DNA of 64,000 nucleotides. Source: an uncultured Myxococcales bacterium. GTDB lineage: Bacteria; Myxococcota_A; UBA9042; DTJE01. Position numbers and translations under genes: made by a program. The stretch is from assembly GCA_937975765.1 (NCBI GenBank), contig CALJUR010000048.1:23538-87537 (forward strand), in the 5' to 3' direction. The notes below the pieces were generated by a model that worked only from the letters and a program-made list of their open reading frames with translations, was not told the origin of the DNA and did not search any database. Positions 1 to 62,696 of the stretch are shown here, piece by piece (the stretch's first letter is position 1; the number at the start of each line of letters is the position of its first letter).

Positions 1-104
1 GCACCCCACTCGGCGAAGACCAGCGCCAGGTCCTTGCCGATCCCGGACGAGGCGCCCGTGATCACGACGTGCTTGCCGCGGTAGAACTCCTGCAGCGACG
101 ACAT
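1..104 (-). CDS. short-chain dehydrogenase/reductase (SDR), N-terminal fragment; gene runs off the window
   Basis: Reverse-complement translation from ATG (104-102) reads MSSLQEFYRGKHVVITGASSGIGKDLALVFAEWG. This contains the TGxxxGxG dinucleotide-binding motif of classical SDRs. Confidence 0.7.
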   Translation of the reverse strand, partial: MSSLQEFYRGKHVVITGASSGIGKDLALVFAEWG

Positions 105-8643: not shown

Positions 8644-8730
8644 GGCGGGGGACGGGGCCCCTCACCTGCGTTGGCGGGGGACGGGGCCCCTCACCTGCGT
8701 TGGCGGGGGACGGGGCCCCCGCCCTACAGG
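8644..8730 (+). repeat. three tandem 29-nt REP-like units (two variant copies, one canonical)
   Basis: GGCGGGGGACGGGGCCCCTCACCTGCGTT occurs at 8644-8672 and 8673-8701, then GGCGGGGGACGGGGCCCCCGCCCTACAGG at 8702-8730. Intergenic, upstream of the OPT gene. Confidence 0.9.
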
Positions 8731-16502: not shown

Positions 16503-16529
16503 GGCGGGGGACGGGGCCCCCGCCCTACA
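16503..16529 (+). repeat. REP-like copy (canonical)
   Basis: GGCGGGGGACGGGGCCCCCGCCCTACA. Its CTA (16525-16527) is the stop codon of the minus-strand TrmO-like gene. Confidence 0.9.
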
Positions 16530-19347: not shown

Positions 19348-19374
19348 TGTAGAGCGGGGGCCCCGTCCCCCGCC
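19348..19374 (-). repeat. REP-like copy (1 mismatch)
   Basis: TGTAGAGCGGGGGCCCCGTCCCCCGCC, between the lipoprotein gene stop and the TonB receptor start. Confidence 0.9.
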
Positions 19375-27000: not shown

Positions 27001-27027
27001 TGTAGGGCGGGGGCCCCGTCCCCCGCC
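27001..27027 (-). repeat. REP-like copy (perfect)
   Basis: TGTAGGGCGGGGGCCCCGTCCCCCGCC, between the receiver-kinase stop and the corA start. Confidence 0.9.
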
Positions 27028-28172: not shown

Positions 28173-28189
28173 GCCGCGCCTCCCGGAAT

Positions 28190-28294
28190 GAGGGCCAGCC
28201 TCCAATTTCCGCCAGGGTGCTTCCAAGCATCCAAACGCCGATACATGGCGGTTATCGCAAGGTTTTCAAGCCTTGAAAATGGAGGCTGTCCCTG
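28190..28294. repeat. diverged GGGACAG-arm pair (CCTCC variant) with a 65-bp core
   Basis: GAGGGCCAGCCTCCAATTTC (28190-28209) versus the reverse complement of 28275-28294, CAGGGACAGCCTCCATTTTC (17/20). Lies between the receiver gene and the receiver-kinase gene. Confidence 0.55.
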
Positions 28295-28299
28295 TTTTT

Positions 28300-28692
28300 C
28301 TACCTCGCCAGCAGGCGATCCACCTCGGACTTCAACTGCTCGTACCGGACGGGCTTGGGCAGCACGGCGTCGGCCGGCACCCAGCGGCGCTCCTCGGTGG
28401 TGGCCGCGTCGAACTCCAGGCCGGTCTCGCCCGTCACGCCCGTCACCAGCAGCACCGGCGTCCCGGGCCGCGCCCGCCGCACGCGGTGCCCCAGCACGAA
28501 GCCCGAGTCGGGGTTCTCCATCATCAGGTCCAGGATCGCCAGGTCGAACGCCGTCCCGGCCGCCAGCAGCGCCTCGCCGCGGGCCTGGCCCTCGGCCGTG
28601 ACCACCTCGAAACCGTCCGCCTTCAGCCGGATGGCGGTCTGCTCCAGGAAGTCGGGGTCGTCGTCCACCAGCAGGATCGTCTTCGCAGGCAT
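28300..28692 (-). CDS. stand-alone response-regulator receiver protein
   Basis: MPAKTILLVDDDPDF...LAILDLMM...LPKPV. 130 aa with no output domain. GGAGG RBS. Confidence 0.85.
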   Translation of the reverse strand: MPAKTILLVDDDPDFLEQTAIRLKADGFEVVTAEGQARGEALLAAGTAFDLAILDLMMENPDSGFVLGHRVRRARPGTPVLLVTGVTGETGLEFDAATTEERRWVPADAVLPKPVRYEQLKSEVDRLLAR

Positions 28693-28711: not shown

Positions 28712-28771
28712 GGCGGGGGACAGGGCCCCCGCCCTACACATCCTGGCGGGGGACGGGGCCCCCGCCCTACA
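28712..28771 (+). repeat. two tandem REP-like copies (33-nt period)
   Basis: CATCCTGGCGGGGGAC(A/G)GGGCCCCCGCCCTACA twice (cores at 28712-28738 and 28745-28771), between the sensor kinase and receiver genes. Confidence 0.9.
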
Positions 28772-28852
28772 CACCGCCAGACCGACGCTTCGCGCGTCCT
28801 GGCGAGCCTCGCGTGCTGCCGACCCTGGCGGCAGACGCTCGCAATTGGCAAC

Positions 28853-28879
28853 GGCGGAGGACAGGGCCCCCGCCCCACG
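28853..28879 (+). repeat. REP-like copy (degenerate)
   Basis: GGCGGAGGACAGGGCCCCCGCCCCACG, immediately 3' of the sensor-kinase stop at 28881. Confidence 0.7.
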
Positions 28880-36669: not shown

Positions 36670-36696
36670 TGCAGGGCGGGGGCCCCGTCCCCCGCC
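36670..36696 (-). repeat. REP-like copy (TGCAGGG variant)
   Basis: TGCAGGGCGGGGGCCCCGTCCCCCGCC, 2 nt from the crotonase stop codon. Confidence 0.9.
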
Positions 36697-37546: not shown

Positions 37547-38077
37547 TCAGCCTCGCCGGGTGAACCAGGTCTGCACGGCGGTCTCGTCGGAGGCGTCCGT
37601 CCACGCCTCGAAGCCCTTCGCCTGGGCCTGCCCGACCAGCGGCGACGGCACGAACGGCGTCACCAGCAGGAAGACCCCGCCCGGCGGCAGCGCGGCCAGC
37701 CCCTGCATCACCTGCGGCAGCGGGTGCCCGCCCGCCTCGATCATGGCGCGCGCATCCAGTGTCCGCGCGGGCTCCTTTGCCCAGCTCGGCCTTGGCACGG
37801 CCCCCTCCCCTTCCGTCGTCCCCTCCGCGATGCAATGCGTCCCCTCGACGCCCGCGGCCCGCCGCAGGGTGGTCACGATCGTCCCGATCGGCACCCCGCC
37901 CACCTGCGCCACCTGCCGCAGCGTGGCCAGTTTCGCGACCGTGGCCCGCAGCACGGGGTTCTTCAGGCGCCGGAACTCCGGCGACAGCGCGATCAGGGAC
38001 TCCTCCAGTTCCGGGTAGTGCCGCAGCAGCGCGCCCACCTTCAGGTCGGGCGTGATGTCCGGACGCATCTCAGCCAT
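37547..38077 (-). CDS. DUF1858 + DUF2249 two-domain protein
   Basis: N-terminus ITPDLKVGALLRHYPELEESL...NPVLRATVAKLATL (DUF1858-like). C-terminus LDARAMIEAGGHPLPQVMQGL...FLLVTPFVP (DUF2249/TusA-like). 8-nt overlap with the upstream gene. Confidence 0.65.
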   Translation of the reverse strand: MAEMRPDITPDLKVGALLRHYPELEESLIALSPEFRRLKNPVLRATVAKLATLRQVAQVGGVPIGTIVTTLRRAAGVEGTHCIAEGTTEGEGAVPRPSWAKEPARTLDARAMIEAGGHPLPQVMQGLAALPPGGVFLLVTPFVPSPLVGQAQAKGFEAWTDASDETAVQTWFTRRG

Positions 38078-39344
38078 GGGGCGCCTCCTTCGCGACGGGC
38101 CCGTCCTCGTCGCCCCACTCCAGCAGCCGCCGGTCGCCCTGCAGCGCGCGCTTGGCGGTCAGGTCCTGGCTGACCTCCAGCGTGCCCAGGTAGGCCCCGG
38201 CCTCGTCCCGCAACGCGAAGTATTCGATGTGGATGAACTTCCCCTTCAGGTTCAGCCAGAAGGCCGCCTGGTCCTTCGCCCCCGACCGGAAGGACTGCAG
38301 GATGCGCTCGACGACGTGCACGCTGTGCGGAGGGTGGCAGAACTGGACCTTCCGTCCCAGGATGGCCCGGTTGCGGTCGAAGATGCGCTCGCGGCCCTGC
38401 GTGAAGTAGCGCACGGTGTCGTCGCGGTCCACGAAGGTCAGGTCGAACGGGATCGTGTTCAGGATCGCCTGCAGTTCGGTCGGGGTGAACGACCCGGAGG
38501 GCAACTGGACGCGCCCCTCCCCGGCCAAAGGCGCCGCGGGCGCGGCCTCGGTAACCGCGGGCTTCCACGCGACCTTCGGGTCGTACAGGCAGTACCCGAT
38601 CTCGTTCTCCTGCCGGACGATCTCCCCCCACTCCGCCTCGGCCAGCGTGTCCATGCACATCGGCAGCAGGATCTGCTCCTCCTTGTCCACCATCGCCGCC
38701 ACCGCGTCGGAAGCCGGCTTCAGCACCAGATCCCTCAGGGACCGGGCCTCCTCGGCCGTGGCGCCAGCCTCCGCCGCCTGCAGCGCCTCGATGGCCCCCT
38801 TCAGCAGCGCCCGCGCCTCGTCGTGCTTGCCCCACATGACCGTCGGCGGACCGCTGACGCCGTGCTTCTCCAGGTGCGGGAACAGCAGGTACTCCTTGCG
38901 CCGGTAGTGCTTGTCCACGTCCATCAGCGCGTTGAACCGGGCACGCGCCTCCGCCAGCAGGCCGGCCGTTTCGTCCCCTGCCGGCATCGCGTCCAGCCGG
39001 GCGTACAGGTCGGCCAACTGGTCCGTCCCCCAGGACAGCGCCAGGTTCTCCTGCTGGAAGGTGTGCACCGGGTGGCCCTCGGGCGCCGTCCTCGCCCCTT
39101 CCTGGCTGATCGCGCCCTGCAGCGCCGCGGTGTGCACGTCGCACAGTTTCAGGACCTCGGCGACCGGCAGCCCCTCCGCGATCAACTCCTGCTCGACCTC
39201 GACCACCTCGCGGTAAGGCACCGACCCCAGCAACCGGATCAGCCGGGGCCGCACCGCGTCCGGGGCCACCCCTTCGTGCAACTGCAGGATCATGTGCTTC
39301 ATCAGCTCCTTGCGCCGGCGCGCGTTGTTGATCAGTTCGCTCAT
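38070..39344 (-). CDS. DUF438-type hemerythrin-like + PAS domain protein
   Basis: DVDKHYRRKEYLLFPHLEKHG...MWGKHDEAR (hemerythrin-like HHE), followed by a C-terminal PAS-like region FDLTFVDRDDTVRYFTQG...FCHPPHSVHVVERIL. Confidence 0.7.
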   Translation of the reverse strand: MSELINNARRRKELMKHMILQLHEGVAPDAVRPRLIRLLGSVPYREVVEVEQELIAEGLPVAEVLKLCDVHTAALQGAISQEGARTAPEGHPVHTFQQENLALSWGTDQLADLYARLDAMPAGDETAGLLAEARARFNALMDVDKHYRRKEYLLFPHLEKHGVSGPPTVMWGKHDEARALLKGAIEALQAAEAGATAEEARSLRDLVLKPASDAVAAMVDKEEQILLPMCMDTLAEAEWGEIVRQENEIGYCLYDPKVAWKPAVTEAAPAAPLAGEGRVQLPSGSFTPTELQAILNTIPFDLTFVDRDDTVRYFTQGRERIFDRNRAILGRKVQFCHPPHSVHVVERILQSFRSGAKDQAAFWLNLKGKFIHIEYFALRDEAGAYLGTLEVSQDLTAKRALQGDRRLLEWGDEDGPVAKEAPHG

Positions 39345-39527
39345 GGTCTCCTCCGGGTTCGTGGATGGCGGGGGACGATCCCCCGGATCCTGTCCGCGGA
39401 TCCATGCAGGGACCGTGCCATTTCGGATATCACTTGTCCGATTTCGCGGATTCTGGGCGGGACGGCGGGATCGGGCCTCGCGACCCGCGGCCACAGGCGC
39501 TACACTCCGCCCCGGGGGAGGTGGCCG

Positions 39528-40583
39528 ATGAGGGCGGGCAGGATCGCGACGCTGCTGGCGGGGATGGTCGCCGGGCTCCTGGCGTGCGGCGGGACGGGGA
39601 GCGCGCGGGACGACGATGGGAACCGGCCGGATGCGGTGGCGGACGAGGCCGTCGCGGACCTTCCGGCGGAAACCGCCCACGACCTCCCTGCGGAAGCCGG
39701 CCTCCCCGCGGGTCCGGCACGCATCGCCGTCGTCACCGACACGCACCTCTGGATGGACGACACCTTCGCGAACAACGTCCACTGGATCGAGGCCATCCGC
39801 ACGCTGGCGTCGCAGGACCCGGCGTGGGACCGGATCGTGTCCACGGGCGACAACATCGACGACCTGTTCACGGCGCCGTTCGCACTGCAGGAGTGGCTGG
39901 ACGGGACGGGCGATCCGGTGGAGATCCTGGTCCACTACCGGGGCCTGGTCGACGCCCACGCGCCCTCGATCTTCCGCATCCTGCTGGGGAACCACGACGT
40001 CCGATACTTCGACACGTTCGAAGGAAACGGCCCTCCTCTGGCCGCCTGGGCCAAGGCCTTCCAGGGCAGCCCGGCCTACCCCGGGCCTTGGTGGTCCGAG
40101 GAGGTGCGCGGCTGCCGGCTGGTCGCGCTGCAGTCCAACGATCTGGCCACGAACCACGCGGACAACGACCTGGCGACGTTCGGGGCCGCCCAACTGGCCT
40201 GGCTGGAGCAGCAACTGACGTCGGACCGGCCCACGATCGTGTTCTGGCACGTCTTCATCGAGCCCCCGGCGGACGGGGAAACGCCGCCCGAGGTGATGCA
40301 GGTGCTGGCGCGCCACCCGGGGCCCGGCGACCGCGTCGTCTTCACCGGGCATGAGCACGAGTTCCGCCGCTACCAATGGCAGGGTGTCCGCTTCTACCAG
40401 GGCGGTTCGCTGGCAGCCTCGGCCGCCTGGGTGCACCAGGTGGAGTGCGACGGCGAGACCGGGGCCATCACGATCCTCAACGAGGCCGACCTGCCCTACT
40501 CCGACCCGCCCCTGCCCCGCCAGGTTCAATTCAGGGTTCAATTCAGGGACAGTCACCATAATTGGCGACCCAACCCCATGTGA
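39528..40583 (+). CDS. calcineurin-like metallophosphoesterase lipoprotein; the C-terminal about 20 aa are encoded by a repeat element
   Basis: Lipobox GLLACGG and an acidic linker. Motifs VVTDTHL, TGDNID, LGNHD, TGHEHE. The reading frame continues into the 12-nt tandem and the left arm of the 40540 element, with stop TGA at 40581. Confidence 0.75.
   Translation: MRAGRIATLLAGMVAGLLACGGTGSARDDDGNRPDAVADEAVADLPAETAHDLPAEAGLPAGPARIAVVTDTHLWMDDTFANNVHWIEAIRTLASQDPAWDRIVSTGDNIDDLFTAPFALQEWLDGTGDPVEILVHYRGLVDAHAPSIFRILLGNHDVRYFDTFEGNGPPLAAWAKAFQGSPAYPGPWWSEEVRGCRLVALQSNDLATNHADNDLATFGAAQLAWLEQQLTSDRPTIVFWHVFIEPPADGETPPEVMQVLARHPGPGDRVVFTGHEHEFRRYQWQGVRFYQGGSLAASAAWVHQVECDGETGAITILNEADLPYSDPPLPRQVQFRVQFRDSHHNWRPNPM
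40525..40548 (+). repeat. 12-nt tandem duplication at the left edge of element copy 1
   Basis: TTCAATTCAGGG x2 (40525-40536 and 40537-40548), translated as QFRV QFRD in the phosphoesterase tail. Confidence 0.85.
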
Positions 40584-40655
40584 TTGTTCCTTATTTCATT
40601 TTCTGCAAGTATTTCCGTCAGTTCGATGCCGAATAATGGTGACTGTCCCTGAATT
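40540..40655. mobile_element. GGGACAG-arm inverted-repeat element, copy 1 (116 bp, MITE-like)
   Basis: Arms AATTCAGGGACAGTCACCATAATT (40540-40563) and AATAATGGTGACTGTCCCTGAATT (40632-40655) are 23/24 complementary. The 68-bp core is about 47% GC. Confidence 0.7.
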
Positions 40656-40662
40656 CAAAAAT

Positions 40663-40682
40663 GGGGACAGCCTCCATTTTCC
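40663..40682 (+). repeat. solo arm of the CCTCC variant of the GGGACAG family
   Basis: GGGGACAGCCTCCATTTTCC, 7 nt after the right arm of copy 1 and inverted relative to it. It matches the arm at 28275-28294. Confidence 0.6.
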
Positions 40683-40690
40683 TGACGACA

Positions 40691-42283
40691 CTAGACTCGG
40701 TACCGTTTCAGTTTTCCCTGCAGGGTCGTGGGTTTGAGGTCCAGGCGGGCCGCGGCGCCGTCCGCCCCGTAGACGTGCCCGCCGGACGCCTCCATCGCAC
40801 GCCGCAACAGGTTCCGCACCTCGTCGTCCCAGCGGCCCGGAGCCATGCCGGACGCGGCAGGCGTCTTCCCCTCACCGATTCCACGCCCGTTTCCGGCGGC
40901 GGCGGCAGGCAGGCCCGGGGAAAGGGAGGCTGGCCCTCTTTTCGTGGCGTCGGGCAGGACCAGGTCCGGCCCGGGGTGCAGGATCAGCGCCCGTTCCAGG
41001 AAGTTCTCCAGTTCCCGGATGTTGCCGGGCCACTCGGAGGACTCCAGCACCTGCAACGCCTCCTCGGACACCTGCGGCGGCTTCCGGCTCATCGCCGCCG
41101 CGTGCCGTGCCAGGAAGTGCGTCACCAGGGGCCGGATGTCCTCGCGGTGCTCGCGCAGCGGCGGCAGCACGATGGGCACGGTGTTCAGGCGGTAGTAGAG
41201 GTCCGACCGGAACGTCCCCCCGGCCACCAGTTCCTCCAGAGGCCGGTTCGTCGCCGCCACCACCCGCACGTCCACCTTCACCGGGGCCGTCCCCCCCACC
41301 CGCTGGATCGCGCGGTCCTGCAGGGCCCGCAGCAACTTGACCTGCACCGCCGGCGGGGCATCCCCGATCTCGTCCAGGAACAGCGTGCCCCCGTCCGCCT
41401 GCTCGAAGCGTCCCGCCCGCCGCGCCGTCGCCCCCGTGAACGCCCCCTTCTCGTGGCCGAACAGTTCGCTCTCGATCAGCGTCTCGGGGATGGCGCCCAC
41501 GTTGACCGTCACGAACGGCCCGCCGAACCGGGGGCTGTAATCATGGATCAGGCGCGCGAGACCCTCCTTGCCCGTGCCGGTCTCGCCCCGGATCAGCACG
41601 GTCGCGCTGGACGCCGCCACCCGCCGGGCCTGCTCCAGCACCTGCTGCATCAGCGGGCTCTCGGCGACATACCGCGCCTCGCTGCGCGCCTGCCGGATCT
41701 GGTCCCTCAGCATCGTGTTCTCGCGGTCCAGCAGGCGGTTCAACCGGCGCACCTCCTCCACCATCAGGCTGTTGTGCAGCGCGATCGCAACCAGCCCCGC
41801 GACCCGCTGGGCGCTGTCCATGCAGCAGTCCAGCAGGCCGTGTCCCGGCTGGTGCGCCACGTCCAGCGTCCCCAGCACCTGGCCCTCGAACTCCAGCGGG
41901 ATGGACACCAGCGCCCCGTACCCGTCCAGCGCCAGCGCCCTCTCCTCGCGGCATCTCGGCTTGGCGGAGTCCAGTGCCAGGAGGACATGCCGCTTCCGCG
42001 TCCGGATCGCCGGCCCGCACGCCGACTGGTCCAGCGGCACCCGCGTACCGACCTCCGCCGCCAGCAGGGTCTTCGGATCGTCCACCAGCAGGACCTCGAC
42101 CTCGTCCGGTCGCTCCGCCACCCACCGGTGGATGGACAGCCGAGTCAGGCCGAAGAACTTCCTCATCAGCGTCGCCGTGCGCTGCAGCACCACCTGCAGG
42201 TCCACCGACGACAGGATGGCGTGCAGGGCCTCGTCGATCAGCCTCTCGCGGTGCAGGTGCCCCGGGCAGTGGACTTCACCCAT
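40691..42283 (-). CDS. norR: sigma-54-dependent activator with N-terminal GAF domain (NorR-like)
   Basis: GAF region, an AAA+ domain ([27 protein letters not shown] with GAFTGA) and a C-terminal HTH. Divergent from a sigma-54 promoter that drives a hemerythrin gene and norB. Confidence 0.8.
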
Positions 42284-58499: not shown

Positions 58500-58526
58500 G
58501 GCGGGGGACGGGGCCCCCGCCCTACA
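58500..58526 (+). repeat. REP-like copy (perfect)
   Basis: GGCGGGGGACGGGGCCCCCGCCCTACA, 7 nt after the SGNH gene stop. Confidence 0.9.
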
Positions 58527-58611
58527 TTGCAGCCGCGTTCAGCCACGAACATGGCGCAGTGACATCACTCGCAACCTTGCCTGGGCGACCCGCATTGGCA
58601 CTGCCCGGAAC

Positions 58612-58638
58612 TGTAGGGAGGGGGACCCGTCCCCCGCC
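58612..58638 (-). repeat. REP-like copy (diverged stem)
   Basis: TGTAGGGAGGGGGACCCGTCCCCCGCC followed by TCCTCCACCCG. Confidence 0.8.
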
Positions 58639-58683
58639 TCCTCCACCCGGACACGCAACCCCGGTCGCCACCGGCTCACCCGA

Positions 58684-58710
58684 TGCAGGGCGGGGGCCCC
58701 GTCCCCCGCC
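58684..58710 (-). repeat. REP-like copy (TGCAGGG variant)
   Basis: TGCAGGGCGGGGGCCCCGTCCCCCGCC followed by TCCTCCGCCCG, the same 3' extension as the 58612 copy. Confidence 0.9.
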
Positions 58711-59997: not shown

Positions 59998-61017
59998 ATG
60001 AAGGTCCTGGTCACCGGAGGCGCGGGCTACATCGGCAGCCACGCGTGCGTCTGCCTGCTGCAGGCCGGCCACGACGTGACGGTCGTCGACAACCTGTGCA
60101 ACAGCAAGCCCGAGGCCCTGCGGCGCGTCCAGCAGATCGCCGGCCGCCCTCTGACCTTCCACCGCGTGGACCTGTGCGACCGGCCCGCGCTGGCCGGGGT
60201 CTTCGAGGGCGAGTCGTTCGACGCCGTCATCCACTTCGCGGGGCTGAAGGCGGTCGGCGAGTCCGTCGCCCAGCCTCTGAAGTACTTCCACAACAACCTG
60301 TCCGGCACGATCTCGCTGCTGCAGGCGATGGCCGACGCGGGCGTGAAGGACCTCGTGTTCAGTTCGTCGGCCACGGTGTACGGCGACCCGGCGACCGTGC
60401 CGATCCCGGAAACGGCCCCGCTGTCCGCGGTCAATCCCTACGGGCGCACCAAGCTGGTCATCGAGGACATGCTGCGCGACCTGCACCGCGCCGACCCGTC
60501 CTGGAACCTGCTGCTGCTGCGGTACTTCAACCCCGTCGGCGCGCACGAAAGCGGCCGCATCGGCGAGGACCCGCGCGGCATCCCGAACAACCTGCTGCCC
60601 TACGTGGCGCAGGTCGCCGTGGGACGCCTGGCCGAACTGAAGGTCTTCGGCGGCGACTACCCGACGCCCGACGGGACCGGCGTGCGCGACTACATCCACG
60701 TCGTGGACCTGGCGGAAGGGCACCTGGCCGCGCTGAACGCCCTGGCCCGCCGGCCCGGCCTGGTCGCCTACAACCTGGGCACCGGCAACGGCTGCAGCGT
60801 GCTGGAGGTCGTGAAGGCCTTCGGGACCGCCTGCGGGCGCCCGATCCCGTACCGGATCGTCGACCGCCGCCCCGGCGACGCCGCCGTCTGCTACGCCGAC
60901 TCGTCGAAGGCGAACGCCGAACTGGGCTGGCGCGCCACCCGCGGCCTGGACCTCATGTGCGCCGACGCCTGGCGCTGGCAGTCCGCCAACCCCGACGGCT
61001 ACCCCGACGACCTGTAG
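59998..61017 (+). CDS. galE: UDP-glucose 4-epimerase
   Basis: [33 protein letters not shown] (YxxxK), typical 339-aa length. Confidence 0.9.
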
Positions 61018-61049
61018 GACGGGCTCCCTGTCCCCCCCGTCGTACCCGT

Positions 61050-61177
61050 AATTCAGGGACAGTCACCATTATTCAACAGATAACCCTTCGATTTTCCAAT
61101 ACATCGTTCATGCGTGATCTCATTACGCTGGAATATCCATGAGTTGTGCCACCAATAATGGTGACTGTCCCTGAATT
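61050..61177. mobile_element. GGGACAG-arm inverted-repeat element, copy 2 (128 bp, MITE-like)
   Basis: AATTCAGGGACAGTCACCATTATT (61050-61073) and its perfect reverse complement (61154-61177) flank an 80-bp core of about 44% GC. Confidence 0.75.
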
Positions 61178-61255
61178 GACCCTTGACCGCCCCTCCTGGG
61201 ATGCAAAGCATCCGGGCTGGCCGGGGAAACGCCCCCGGACATCAAGGAGGGAATC

Positions 61256-61888
61256 ATGACCCGTGCATCCGCTTTCACCGCCGTCGTCGTCGCCGGCGTC
61301 CTGGTCGCCGCCTGCTCCGATCCCGCGAAGGACAAGCCCAAGGCCCAGGTCGGCGCGCCCGTCGCGCAGGCCCCGGCACCCGCCGTCGATGCCATGGTCA
61401 CCTACAACGTCCTGCCCGCCACCTCGAAGATCGAGTGGACCGGGTCGAAGGTCACCGGCAAGCACGACGGCGGCTTCACGCAGTTCAAGGGCACCGTGCA
61501 GGTCCCGGCCGGCAAGGTCCAGGGCGCGCGCATCGCCGTCGAGATCCAGACCGACTCGCTGGTGTCCGAGCCCGACAAGCTGGTGACCCACCTGAAGTCG
61601 CCGGACTTCTTCGACGTCCAGAAGTTCCCGACCGCGACCTTCGAGTCCACCACCATCGACGCGGGCGACTCGCCGACCGCATTCACCATCACCGGCAACC
61701 TGACCCTGCACGGCGTGACGAAGTCGATCCAGTTCCCCGCGAAGGTGACGGCCACCGACGCGGCCCTGCAGGCCACCGCCGAGTTCGTCATCAACCGCAA
61801 GGACTTCGGGCTGGTCTATCCCGGCATGCCCGACGACCTGATCCGCGACGACGTGGTGATCCGCCTGAACCTGAACGCGCCGAAGTGA
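61256..61888 (+). CDS. yceI: YceI-family periplasmic lipoprotein
   Basis: Lipobox LVAACSD. KIEWTGSKVTGKHDGGFTQFKGTV...ATFESTTI...GNLTLHGVTKSIQFPAKV is the YceI pattern. AAGGAGGG RBS. Confidence 0.85.
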   Translation: MTRASAFTAVVVAGVLVAACSDPAKDKPKAQVGAPVAQAPAPAVDAMVTYNVLPATSKIEWTGSKVTGKHDGGFTQFKGTVQVPAGKVQGARIAVEIQTDSLVSEPDKLVTHLKSPDFFDVQKFPTATFESTTIDAGDSPTAFTITGNLTLHGVTKSIQFPAKVTATDAALQATAEFVINRKDFGLVYPGMPDDLIRDDVVIRLNLNAPK

Positions 61889-61900
61889 CCCCTTCCAAAA

Positions 61901-61941
61901 CAGGGACAGTCACCATTATTGATGTCTGAAGTCCCTGAATT
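61901..61941. repeat. collapsed GGGACAG-arm element (left arm plus 11 nt of the right arm)
   Basis: CAGGGACAGTCACCATTATT, then GATGTCTGAA, then GTCCCTGAATT, 13 nt after the yceI stop. Confidence 0.7.
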
Positions 61942-62060
61942 CCCGACCTTCCGTCCTTGCCTTCCCGCGCCCGGACGCCTATCCTTCCGTCGCGAGGGTC
62001 CCGCGAGGATCCCCAGGCGCGGGGCACGCCCCGCATGACGAACTTCCTTTGGCGGACGCC

Positions 62061-62696
62061 ATGGACGAAGGCCCGGTAACCGGTCGCAAGCATCAAGGTC
62101 ACGAAGGAACGATTCCCACTCCCGCCCGGCACGACACCCCGCTGCCTGTAACCGTCCGCGAGATGGAACTGGAGGACCTGGCCAAGGTCTACCAGCTGGG
62201 CGAACGGCTGTTCACGGCGGAACGCTGGCCGAACCTCTACCGCACGTGGGACGAGTACGAGGTCATCGAGCTGTTCGCGACGGACGGCGAGACCTGCCTG
62301 GTCGCGGAACTGGACGGCAAGGTCGTCGGGTTCGCACTGGGGACGCTGATCGAGAAGCGGCGCAGCGCCTGGACCTACGGGTACCTGCTTTGGCTGGGCG
62401 TGGACCCCGACGTCGGCCATCGCGGCGTCGCCGGCCGGCTGGTCGACCGCCTGCGCGAACTGTTCATCGAGCAGGGCGCGCGGATGATCCTGGTCGATAC
62501 CGCCGCCGAGAACCACGACGCGATCTCGTTCTTCCAGGGCCAGGGGTTCGGCAATGAAACCGCCCACGTGTACCTGGAACAGAACCTGACGTCGCACCCC
62601 GCGTACGTCCGGAAACGGTCCAAGCGCCGCCTGGGCACGAACCGGTCGCACCCCAAGCCGAAGCCGGCCGCGGTGGGGCCGCACGGGGAGGACTGA
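62061..62696 (+). CDS. GNAT-family N-acetyltransferase
   Basis: VGFALGT...LWLGVDPDVGHRGVAGRLVDRL (acetyl-CoA Q/RxxGxG/A motif). The start is uncertain (ATG 62061 or 62163). Basic C-terminal tail. Confidence 0.65.
   Translation: MDEGPVTGRKHQGHEGTIPTPARHDTPLPVTVREMELEDLAKVYQLGERLFTAERWPNLYRTWDEYEVIELFATDGETCLVAELDGKVVGFALGTLIEKRRSAWTYGYLLWLGVDPDVGHRGVAGRLVDRLRELFIEQGARMILVDTAAENHDAISFFQGQGFGNETAHVYLEQNLTSHPAYVRKRSKRRLGTNRSHPKPKPAAVGPHGED

Follow-up and report, generated by a model that had tools for sequence, protein, structure and literature searches.

A 128-bp AT-rich palindrome of an uncultured Myxococcota-like bacterium is very probably a gene-less miniature of a TIRtron

[quoted passage not shown] In the same paper, REP-type repeats are reported to lie mainly 3' of genes (PMC3733652). 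Most TIRYTs were assigned by Quentin et al. (2018) to TnpA-Y1 subclass 2.1, which equals Bertels' Group 1; proteins of that subclass have a median length of 238 aa, carry NHVH/NH[YF]H, W[EQ], Y[IV]ELNP and SS motifs and end in an HTH-like tail, and REP-like hairpins were reported as not found beside its genes (PMC6006769). For Group 1 genes, Bertels et al. (2017) gave a modest genome frequency for the flanking 16-mers, with ∼12 occurrences (PMC5581495). TIRYT, RAYT Group 1 and TnpA-Y1 subclass 2.1 are thus three names for one enzyme. No assay of any TIRYT or subclass 2.1 enzyme was found in our literature search, and a full-text search with 12-mers and 8-mers of the arms described below returned unrelated primers only.

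We analyzed 64,000 nucleotides (the window) of contig DAIUFA010000015.1, which belongs to the MAG GCA_036844845.1 from an anaerobic digester. Homologs of its YceI protein bear names that suggest Myxococcota (Polyangiaceae, Labilithrix), the nearest of them being only ∼60% identical. An earlier, sequence-only reading had drawn attention to a 128-bp element at 61050–61177, with perfect inverted arms around a short AT-rich core, and had offered recombinase-flipped promoter switches, protein-bound palindromes and structured RNAs as its possible nature. We find that the same arms are the TIRs of a system around a single-copy Y1 gene elsewhere in the genome, and the element is therefore very probably a gene-less miniature of a TIRtron, its left end joined to its right end, and not an invertible switch. 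As such it is an addition to a known, sparsely studied repeat system and not a new mechanism.

Copies of the repeat in the window and in the source metagenomes

The arms of the 61050 element form the longest inverted repeat in the window at spans of ≤400 bp. Its 80-bp core has a GC content of 43.8% (41% for the entire 128 bp) in a window of 70.7% GC, which confirms the perfect 24-bp arms and the values of about 44% and 70% that had been given for core and genome. The second copy proposed at the time (40540–40655) also stands, with arms that match at 23 of 24 positions; its 68-bp core shows no significant alignment to that of the 61050 copy, the scores in the two orientations being −5 and −8 as compared to −10.6±3.9 for shuffles. 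The third, diverged pair is real as well, with arms better placed at 28185–28210 and 28275–28300 than at 28190–28294, and its left arm matches an arm, GGAATGAGGGCCAGCCTCGATTTTCC, of a second type (B) found at locus L185 (see below). Two further copies had escaped notice, namely a truncated A-type copy and a solo B-type arm (Table 1). Overall, the shared motif GGGACAGYCWCCATT, allowing ≤2 mismatches, occurs nine times in the window as compared to 0.36 expected.

All window copies are intergenic or at most overlap the 3' end of a gene. The 61050 element lies 3' of a GalE-like epimerase gene and 5' of yceI; the truncated copy, which begins 9 bp past the YceI stop codon, lies 3' of yceI and 5' of a GNAT gene; the 40540 copy and the solo B arm lie between convergent Metallophos and sigma-54 activator genes; and the B-type doublet lies between two minus-strand response-regulator-type genes. 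The Metallophos ORF (38052..40583, +) enters the 40540 element, so that its last ∼15 codons (…QFRDSHHNWRPNPM) and stop codon are repeat-derived. In the linker of the sigma-54 activator ORF, a degenerate B-type core, GGGCCAGCCTC, followed by CCTTTCC (40926–40936, −), faces the solo B arm, and judging from the sequence it could either have arisen by chance or be an intragenic repeat that is in frame. Tandem duplications of arm ends like the one at the left terminus of the 40540 copy (Table 1) were also seen at L183 (4697–4740, a 20-bp repeat of the arm downstream of the transposase gene) and at L143 (386–467, three tandem arms). Past the end of the window, a few kb downstream, the same contig (L117, 13314–15968) encodes a nucleotidyltransferase/HEPN pair, a D12-class DNA methyltransferase and a MazE/PemK toxin-antitoxin pair.

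Table 1. Repeat features of the window (positions count from its first nucleotide).
Feature	Position	Strand	Detail
Left A-type TIR arm	61050..61073	+	AATTCAGGGACAGTCACCATTATT; 24/24 complementary to 61154-61177; contigs diverge exactly at 61050
61050 element interior	61074..61153	.	Two decayed subterminal segments, from the alignment of 42 halves
Left-end-like half, 61050 element	N8 61074-61081; AAC 61082-61084; N5 61085-61089; G 61090	+	
Right-end-like half, 61050 element	N8 61146-61153; GTT (=AAC) 61143-61145; N5 61138-61142; C (=G) 61137	-	
Right A-type TIR arm	61154..61177	-	24/24 complementarity; contigs diverge at 61177/61178
Truncated A-type copy	61897..61941	+	Arm AAAACAGGGACAGTCACCATTATT at 61897-61920; 11-bp opposite-arm remnant GTCCCTGAATT at 61931-61941
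Second A-type doublet	40540..40655	.	Arms 40540-40563 (+) and 40632-40655 (-); 68-bp interior
12-bp tandem duplication	40524..40547	+	GTTCAATTCAGG twice; spans left terminus of 40540 copy; read from the sequence
Solo B-type TIR arm	40657..40682	+	AAAAATGGGGACAGCCTCCATTTTCC; directly adjoins A-type doublet 40540-40655
B-type doublet	28185..28300	.	Arms 28185-28210 (GGAATGAGGGCCAGCCTCCAATTTCC, +) and 28275-28300 (-)
GTAG-tagged REP copies	8702-8727; 16503-16528; 19349-19374; 27002-27027; 28712-28878 (3 copies); 36671-36696; 58500-58710 (3 copies)		GTAGGGCGGGGGCCCCGTCCCCCGCC

To compare these copies with others, assembled contigs of the source metagenomes were placed on the 61050 and 40540 loci. 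Contig depth over the arms was ∼26 times the baseline, and many contigs with the same arms and other interiors diverged exactly at 61050, 61177/61178, 40538–40540 and 40655/40656. About 25 arm-equivalents with unrelated interiors were present in one metagenome. A metagenome scan with AATTCAGGGACAGTCACCAT as the query yielded 26 loci, none overlapping the window, and 25 of the 26 carry family copies, the exception (L122, 46% GC) resembling a chance match; the arms are thus multi-copy. Many scan loci carry solo arms. Among the 12 doublets available (from the scan loci, plus two from the window), 11 measure 115–135 bp and one, with tandem arms, measures 185 bp. No two of the 12 share an interior, and there is thus no sign that whole doublets have transposed recently. 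No empty site, excision junction or recent identical copy was seen among the assembled contigs, the related-strain contigs (X4) ending before the elements or breaking inside them. In viral contigs, 35 matches to a 15-mer were found, all single and none AT-flanked, which indicates that the element is not phage-borne.

A check for target-site duplications, which the sequence-only reading had recommended, revealed no direct repeat flanking the copies beyond the terminal AATT, which borders 8 of 14 copies on both sides. Being palindromic, this AATT can be assigned neither to the repeat nor to the target, and it could be a 4-bp target duplication instead of part of the repeat. Separately, in 9 of 10 doublets that are informative for the arm variants ATTATT and ATTACT, both arms carry the same variant (L121, L125, L126, L130, L135, L137, L139, L143 and L145; 61050 in the window), as could arise if doublets are copied as units, if stem pairing is maintained, or if two related genomes are present in the metagenome.

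The anatomy of the repeat became apparent when 42 TIR halves were aligned, all oriented from the outer end toward the interior. Columns 1–24 are nearly invariant, and the mean pairwise identity is 93% for the arms and 39% for the interiors. Inward of the 24-nt arm follow a variable N8, a conserved AAC (columns 33–35), a variable N5 and a conserved G (column 41), then a weakly conserved A/T-rich stretch with one conserved T, past which conservation ceases. In our reading of the alignment there are two types of halves, one resembling the upstream end of the gene-bearing locus, with an N8 that begins CA, and one resembling its downstream end, with an N8 that begins G and that often makes a small GGTG hairpin with the CACC of the arm. 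Several doublets consist of one half of each type, which suggests that a doublet is a left end plus a right end without the gene. From this conservation pattern we conclude that the “unrelated cores” are decayed subterminal sequence, left end plus right end. The contrast between conserved arms and unrelated cores therefore survives in part: the interiors are indeed unconserved, but AAC (33–35) and G (41) are retained, the halves show left/right-end polarity, and most doublets fall within 115–135 bp. Similarly, the suggestion that alignment of many copies might reveal a plain decayed MITE is partly borne out, the 42 halves describing a miniature element with a decayed interior.

Single halves folded no better than shuffles (z = 0.16) or weakly so (z = −2.05), whereas the 61050 doublet folded as single-stranded DNA at −30.6 kcal/mol (z = −8.2) and another doublet at −22.9 kcal/mol (z = −5.3), the strong folding running through the arms. 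Interior similarity/complementarity was no higher between the halves of a doublet (0.35) than across doublets (0.39), which argues against selection for pairing in the interior.

A Y1 transposase gene between the same arms

At locus L142, one of the scan loci and from a close relative, A-type arms at 31–54 (+) and 847–870 (−), inverted and 816 bp apart, enclose an ORF of 229 aa that matches Pfam Y1_Tnp (34.8 bits; cut-off 23) and NCBIfam NF047646, REP-associated tyrosine transposase (81.1 bits; cut-off 80). A homolog with 85% BLASTP identity, P0122 (229 aa), is encoded in the assembly of the window itself, GCA_036844845.1, on another contig (DAIUFA010000008.1; locus L183), where it has AATTGGGGGACAGTCACCATTATT upstream and inverted arms, tandemly duplicated, downstream. 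Because L142 and L183 share 90% nucleotide identity across 2.8 kb and have their neighboring genes in common, the gene has been inherited in place together with its repeats. Each assembly in which the RAYT-family gene was found has it at a single locus. A second Y1_Tnp gene (P0127, 53% identical) is flanked by B-type arms at L185 and occurs in the same four samples as the first, and from the shared samples and a similar GC content we infer that it too resides in the genome of the window. Within the window, no Y1 transposase gene of this family was detected by tblastn and no recombinase lies beside the copies; the earlier remark that no transposase is visible there holds for this family, but the cognate gene exists on the other contig.

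P0122 contains the motifs NHSH (59–62), WQ (99–100), YVELNP (119–124) and WSS (138–140), whose residues vary little or not at all among 53 homologs; P0122 and the other 52 share NHxH (HuH), WQ, Y-[IV]-E-[LR]-N-P with the catalytic tyrosine, WSS and a conserved C-terminal region. These motifs fit TnpA-Y1 subclass 2.1, i.e., RAYT Group 1. Among PDB entries, the AlphaFold model of P0122 (mean pLDDT 93.9) matches best to 4ER8, the complex of TnpA-REP with a REP hairpin (E 7e-10), and next to the IS608 and ISDra2 transposases; the match to 4ER8 is also found at the sequence level (E 1e-6). Past the HUH core, the model predicts three extra C-terminal helices at 163–205 that the PDB matches do not cover; no named domain was found in this tail by Pfam at E ≤10, and there was no DnaA_C or HTH match.

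Related gene-repeat pairs occur well outside this lineage. Homologous genes in Methylomirabilales and Planctomycetota MAGs are flanked by AT-bracketed repeats with the core GGGGACAGCGCCC, those in Acidobacteriota MAGs by AT-bracketed repeats with the core GGGGACAGTCCCC, and a Bryobacteraceae homolog by inverted repeats whose core is more diverged. A scan of genome contigs with the 14-mer GGGACAGTCACCAT returned mostly chance or coding matches (e.g., a conserved Streptomyces coding site), the AT-flanked inverted pairs being the useful subset. The exact 14-mer was found as such pairs in MAGs labelled Nitrospiraceae, Gemmatimonadota, Planctomycetota, Acidobacteriota and Saccharibacteria, and paired matches are far above chance.

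Proposed origin of the gene-less elements

We propose that the 128-bp element derives from a TIRtron, which comprises a single-copy IS200-like Y1/HUH tyrosine transposase gene between TIRs of roughly 45–50 nt. Conservation in the repeat covers the 24-nt arm (core GGGGACAG), an AAC that stands eight variable positions further in, and a G after five more variable positions; the transposase may read the arm and the AAC and G positions. In single-stranded DNA both arms could pair into a 24-bp stem, the presumed substrate for HUH/tyrosine cleavage and rejoining. TnpA-REP of E. coli cleaves and rejoins at REP hairpins, and it is on this enzyme and IS608 that the proposed mechanism is modeled. Repeated action would, over evolutionary time, spread arms through intergenic DNA as doublets, solos and tandems. 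Only the positions read by the protein would be kept while the interior drifts, and unconstrained, drifting interiors of this kind would produce conserved arms with unrelated cores. The B-type arms belong to the second, paralogous transposase gene, which has its own repeat family. What was observed directly is that gene and repeat are associated, how conservation is distributed along the repeat, which family and fold the protein has, and in which phyla the system occurs, whereas binding, cleavage and mobility are attributed to the system by analogy. The possibility of protein-bound palindromes, raised at the outset, comes closest among the earlier proposals, since the arms flank a Y1 gene and carry GGGGWSAS, with binding by that enzyme being likewise presumed from its relatives.

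The earlier suggestion of an invertible promoter switch, in which a site-specific recombinase flips the AT-rich core and so toggles the downstream gene, fits the perfect inverted arms around a short AT-rich segment upstream of yceI. We nevertheless consider it exceedingly improbable. A simple scan limited to sigma-70-like sites found none in 60900–62100, and no recombinase was found among the genes flanking the four window copies (GalE-like, YceI, GNAT, Metallophos, sigma-54 activator and two response-regulator-type genes were checked). Moreover, the ∼25 arm occurrences in one metagenome have unrelated interiors and are accompanied by solo and truncated copies; three of the four window copies lie 3' of a same-strand gene and the fourth between convergent genes, with none in a divergent promoter region; and the arms flank a Y1/HUH transposase gene. 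Y1/HUH enzymes are not known to invert DNA. Terminal inverted repeats, a short non-coding interior and the paired AATT of 8 of 14 copies, possibly a palindromic 4-bp duplication, would equally be expected of a miniature of a DDE transposon (e.g., IS630/Tc1-like or IS5-like) with AATT as its duplicated target, in which case the link to the Y1 gene would be coincidental. This explanation is very improbable when one considers that no duplication extends past AATT, that no DDE transposase lies between these arms at any locus, and that the arms flank the Y1 gene in two orthologous loci while related arms flank homologs in four other lineages. The arm motif, furthermore, matches the motif published for TIRYTs as described in the TIRYT report (PMC3733652).

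More can be said for a structured RNA or terminator family, whose hairpin would be selected in RNA for transcription end or for stability of the upstream mRNA, because all four window copies lie 3' of a gene and the hairpin is very stable. In addition, the arms in other phyla are bracketed by an A-run and a T-run, as in a bidirectional terminator, and the location mainly 3' of genes reported for REP-type repeats (PMC3733652) is shared. Yet the whole window gave no Rfam match at gathering thresholds. Near the element, at E ≤10, the sole overlapping match was to a plant miRNA precursor (27 bits against a cut-off of 120 bits), which we rejected as a generic hairpin match. A simple scan found no terminator-like site, the arms in this genome are followed by GAATTG and not by a T-run, the complementarity values given above (0.35 within and 0.39 between doublets) show no compensatory pairing inside doublets, and solo arms do not fold. 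We thus regard an origin as RNA or terminator as improbable. Given the 3' position of all window copies relative to genes, termination or RNA stabilization could be a secondary effect of the element instead of an alternative origin.

Returning to the gene-less miniature of a TIRtron, the discrepancy between arms that are 93% identical and interiors saturated at 39% leads us to propose, as a rather unlikely extension, that the arms are kept at each locus by purifying selection as sites of a domesticated Group 1 RAYT with a cross-phylum code (GGGGACAG plus spaced AAC and G), serving a host-level task; if true, this task could be the processing of single-stranded DNA at replication forks, transcription termination or genome structuring. 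Either the arms are held by selection at each locus, or copies with intact arms alone persist. The miniature itself accounts for an odd repeat, with perfect arms, unrelated cores and an AT-rich composition in 71% GC, without a new mechanism, and ties it to a specific gene in the MAG. It also supplies a natural example for the least-studied RAYT branch (Group 1/subclass 2.1/TIRYT), and two paralogous genes with their own repeat families, conservation over the first ∼45 nt and a cross-phylum arm core are inputs for assay design. For annotation, AT-rich palindromes of this kind should be masked as repeats and not called small ORFs, sRNAs or phase switches.

Comparison with described repeat systems

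Invertons of the fimS and hin type resemble the 61050 element in that a short segment upstream of a gene lies between inverted repeats, but here no recombinase is adjacent, no sigma-70-like promoter was found in the segment, the copies number in the dozens and differ in their interiors, and solo arms are frequent. With IS200/IS605 elements (IS608, ISDra2) the system shares the HUH/Y1 catalytic fold and the lack of long target duplications; in contrast, IS608 and ISDra2 are multi-copy and autonomous, their subterminal hairpins are directly oriented, and they lack terminal inverted repeats. Other candidates, namely integron attC sites, IS200/IS605 ends, DNA uptake sequences and transcription-factor operators, were dropped because GTTRRRY ends and unit hairpins are absent and because the repeats accompany a Y1 gene.

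The REP/REPIN-RAYT systems of Groups 2 and 3, including E. coli TnpA-REP, are more similar: a single-copy Y1 gene lies between its own inverted repeats, the dispersed unit is an inverted-repeat doublet with a less conserved spacer, the location is intergenic and mainly 3' of genes, and 4ER8 is the best structural match of the P0122 model. However, neither A- nor B-type arms carry a 5' GT[AG]G tag, single units here are non-palindromic and do not fold, the spacer is long (∼70–80 nt), and P0122 represents another RAYT group with a C-terminal extension. A canonical GTAG-tagged REP family, GTAGGGCGGGGGCCCCGTCCCCCGCC, was observed separately in the window, with 11 copies as compared to 0 expected, often clustered or in inverted pairs (Table 1); this genome probably harbors a classical REP-RAYT system alongside the two TIR families. 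We also observed that solo A arms in L123, L124, L128, L129, L131/L138, L133 and L141 are followed ∼50–60 nt inward by a GC-rich repeat (...GGGGCCCCGTCCCCCGCC...) resembling the stem of the GTAG REP of the window; in L128 and L141 an additional hairpin, CCGT[AT]TGCCACCC...GGGGGGCA[TA]ACTG, comes after the GC-rich repeat, and these solo-arm composites are mosaic and BIME-like.

The closest likeness is to TIRtrons/TIRYTs. In both, a Y1/HUH gene lies between long terminal inverted repeats and not REP hairpins, the units being plain inverted repeats and not self-complementary GTAG-tagged hairpins; the TIR families are moderately abundant, occur as singles, dimers and groups, and are specific to each gene; the gene is present once per assembly and syntenic between relatives; and the protein, of ∼230 aa, has NHxH, WQ, Y[IV]E[LR]NP and SS motifs and ends in a helical tail. 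The gene-adjacent A arms and the solo B arm at 40657–40682 carry GGGGACAG, which fits GGGGWSAS, whereas the dispersed A arms of the window carry AGGGACAG, which agrees at 7 of 8 motif positions. The host, an uncultured Myxococcota-like MAG from an anaerobic digester, is new. The available text of the TIRYT papers mentions neither the bipartite pattern (24-nt arm, N8, AAC, N5, G) and the left/right-end polarity of doublets nor the near-identity of a 12–14-nt arm core across several phyla. As far as its sequence goes, the element has every feature that defines the TIRYT repeats and lacks both canonical REP hallmarks, the GT[AG]G tag and the unit palindromes. In its workings the element resembles a REPIN, being an inverted doublet tied to a Y1 gene that is single-copy, but its affiliation is with the TIRYT branch.
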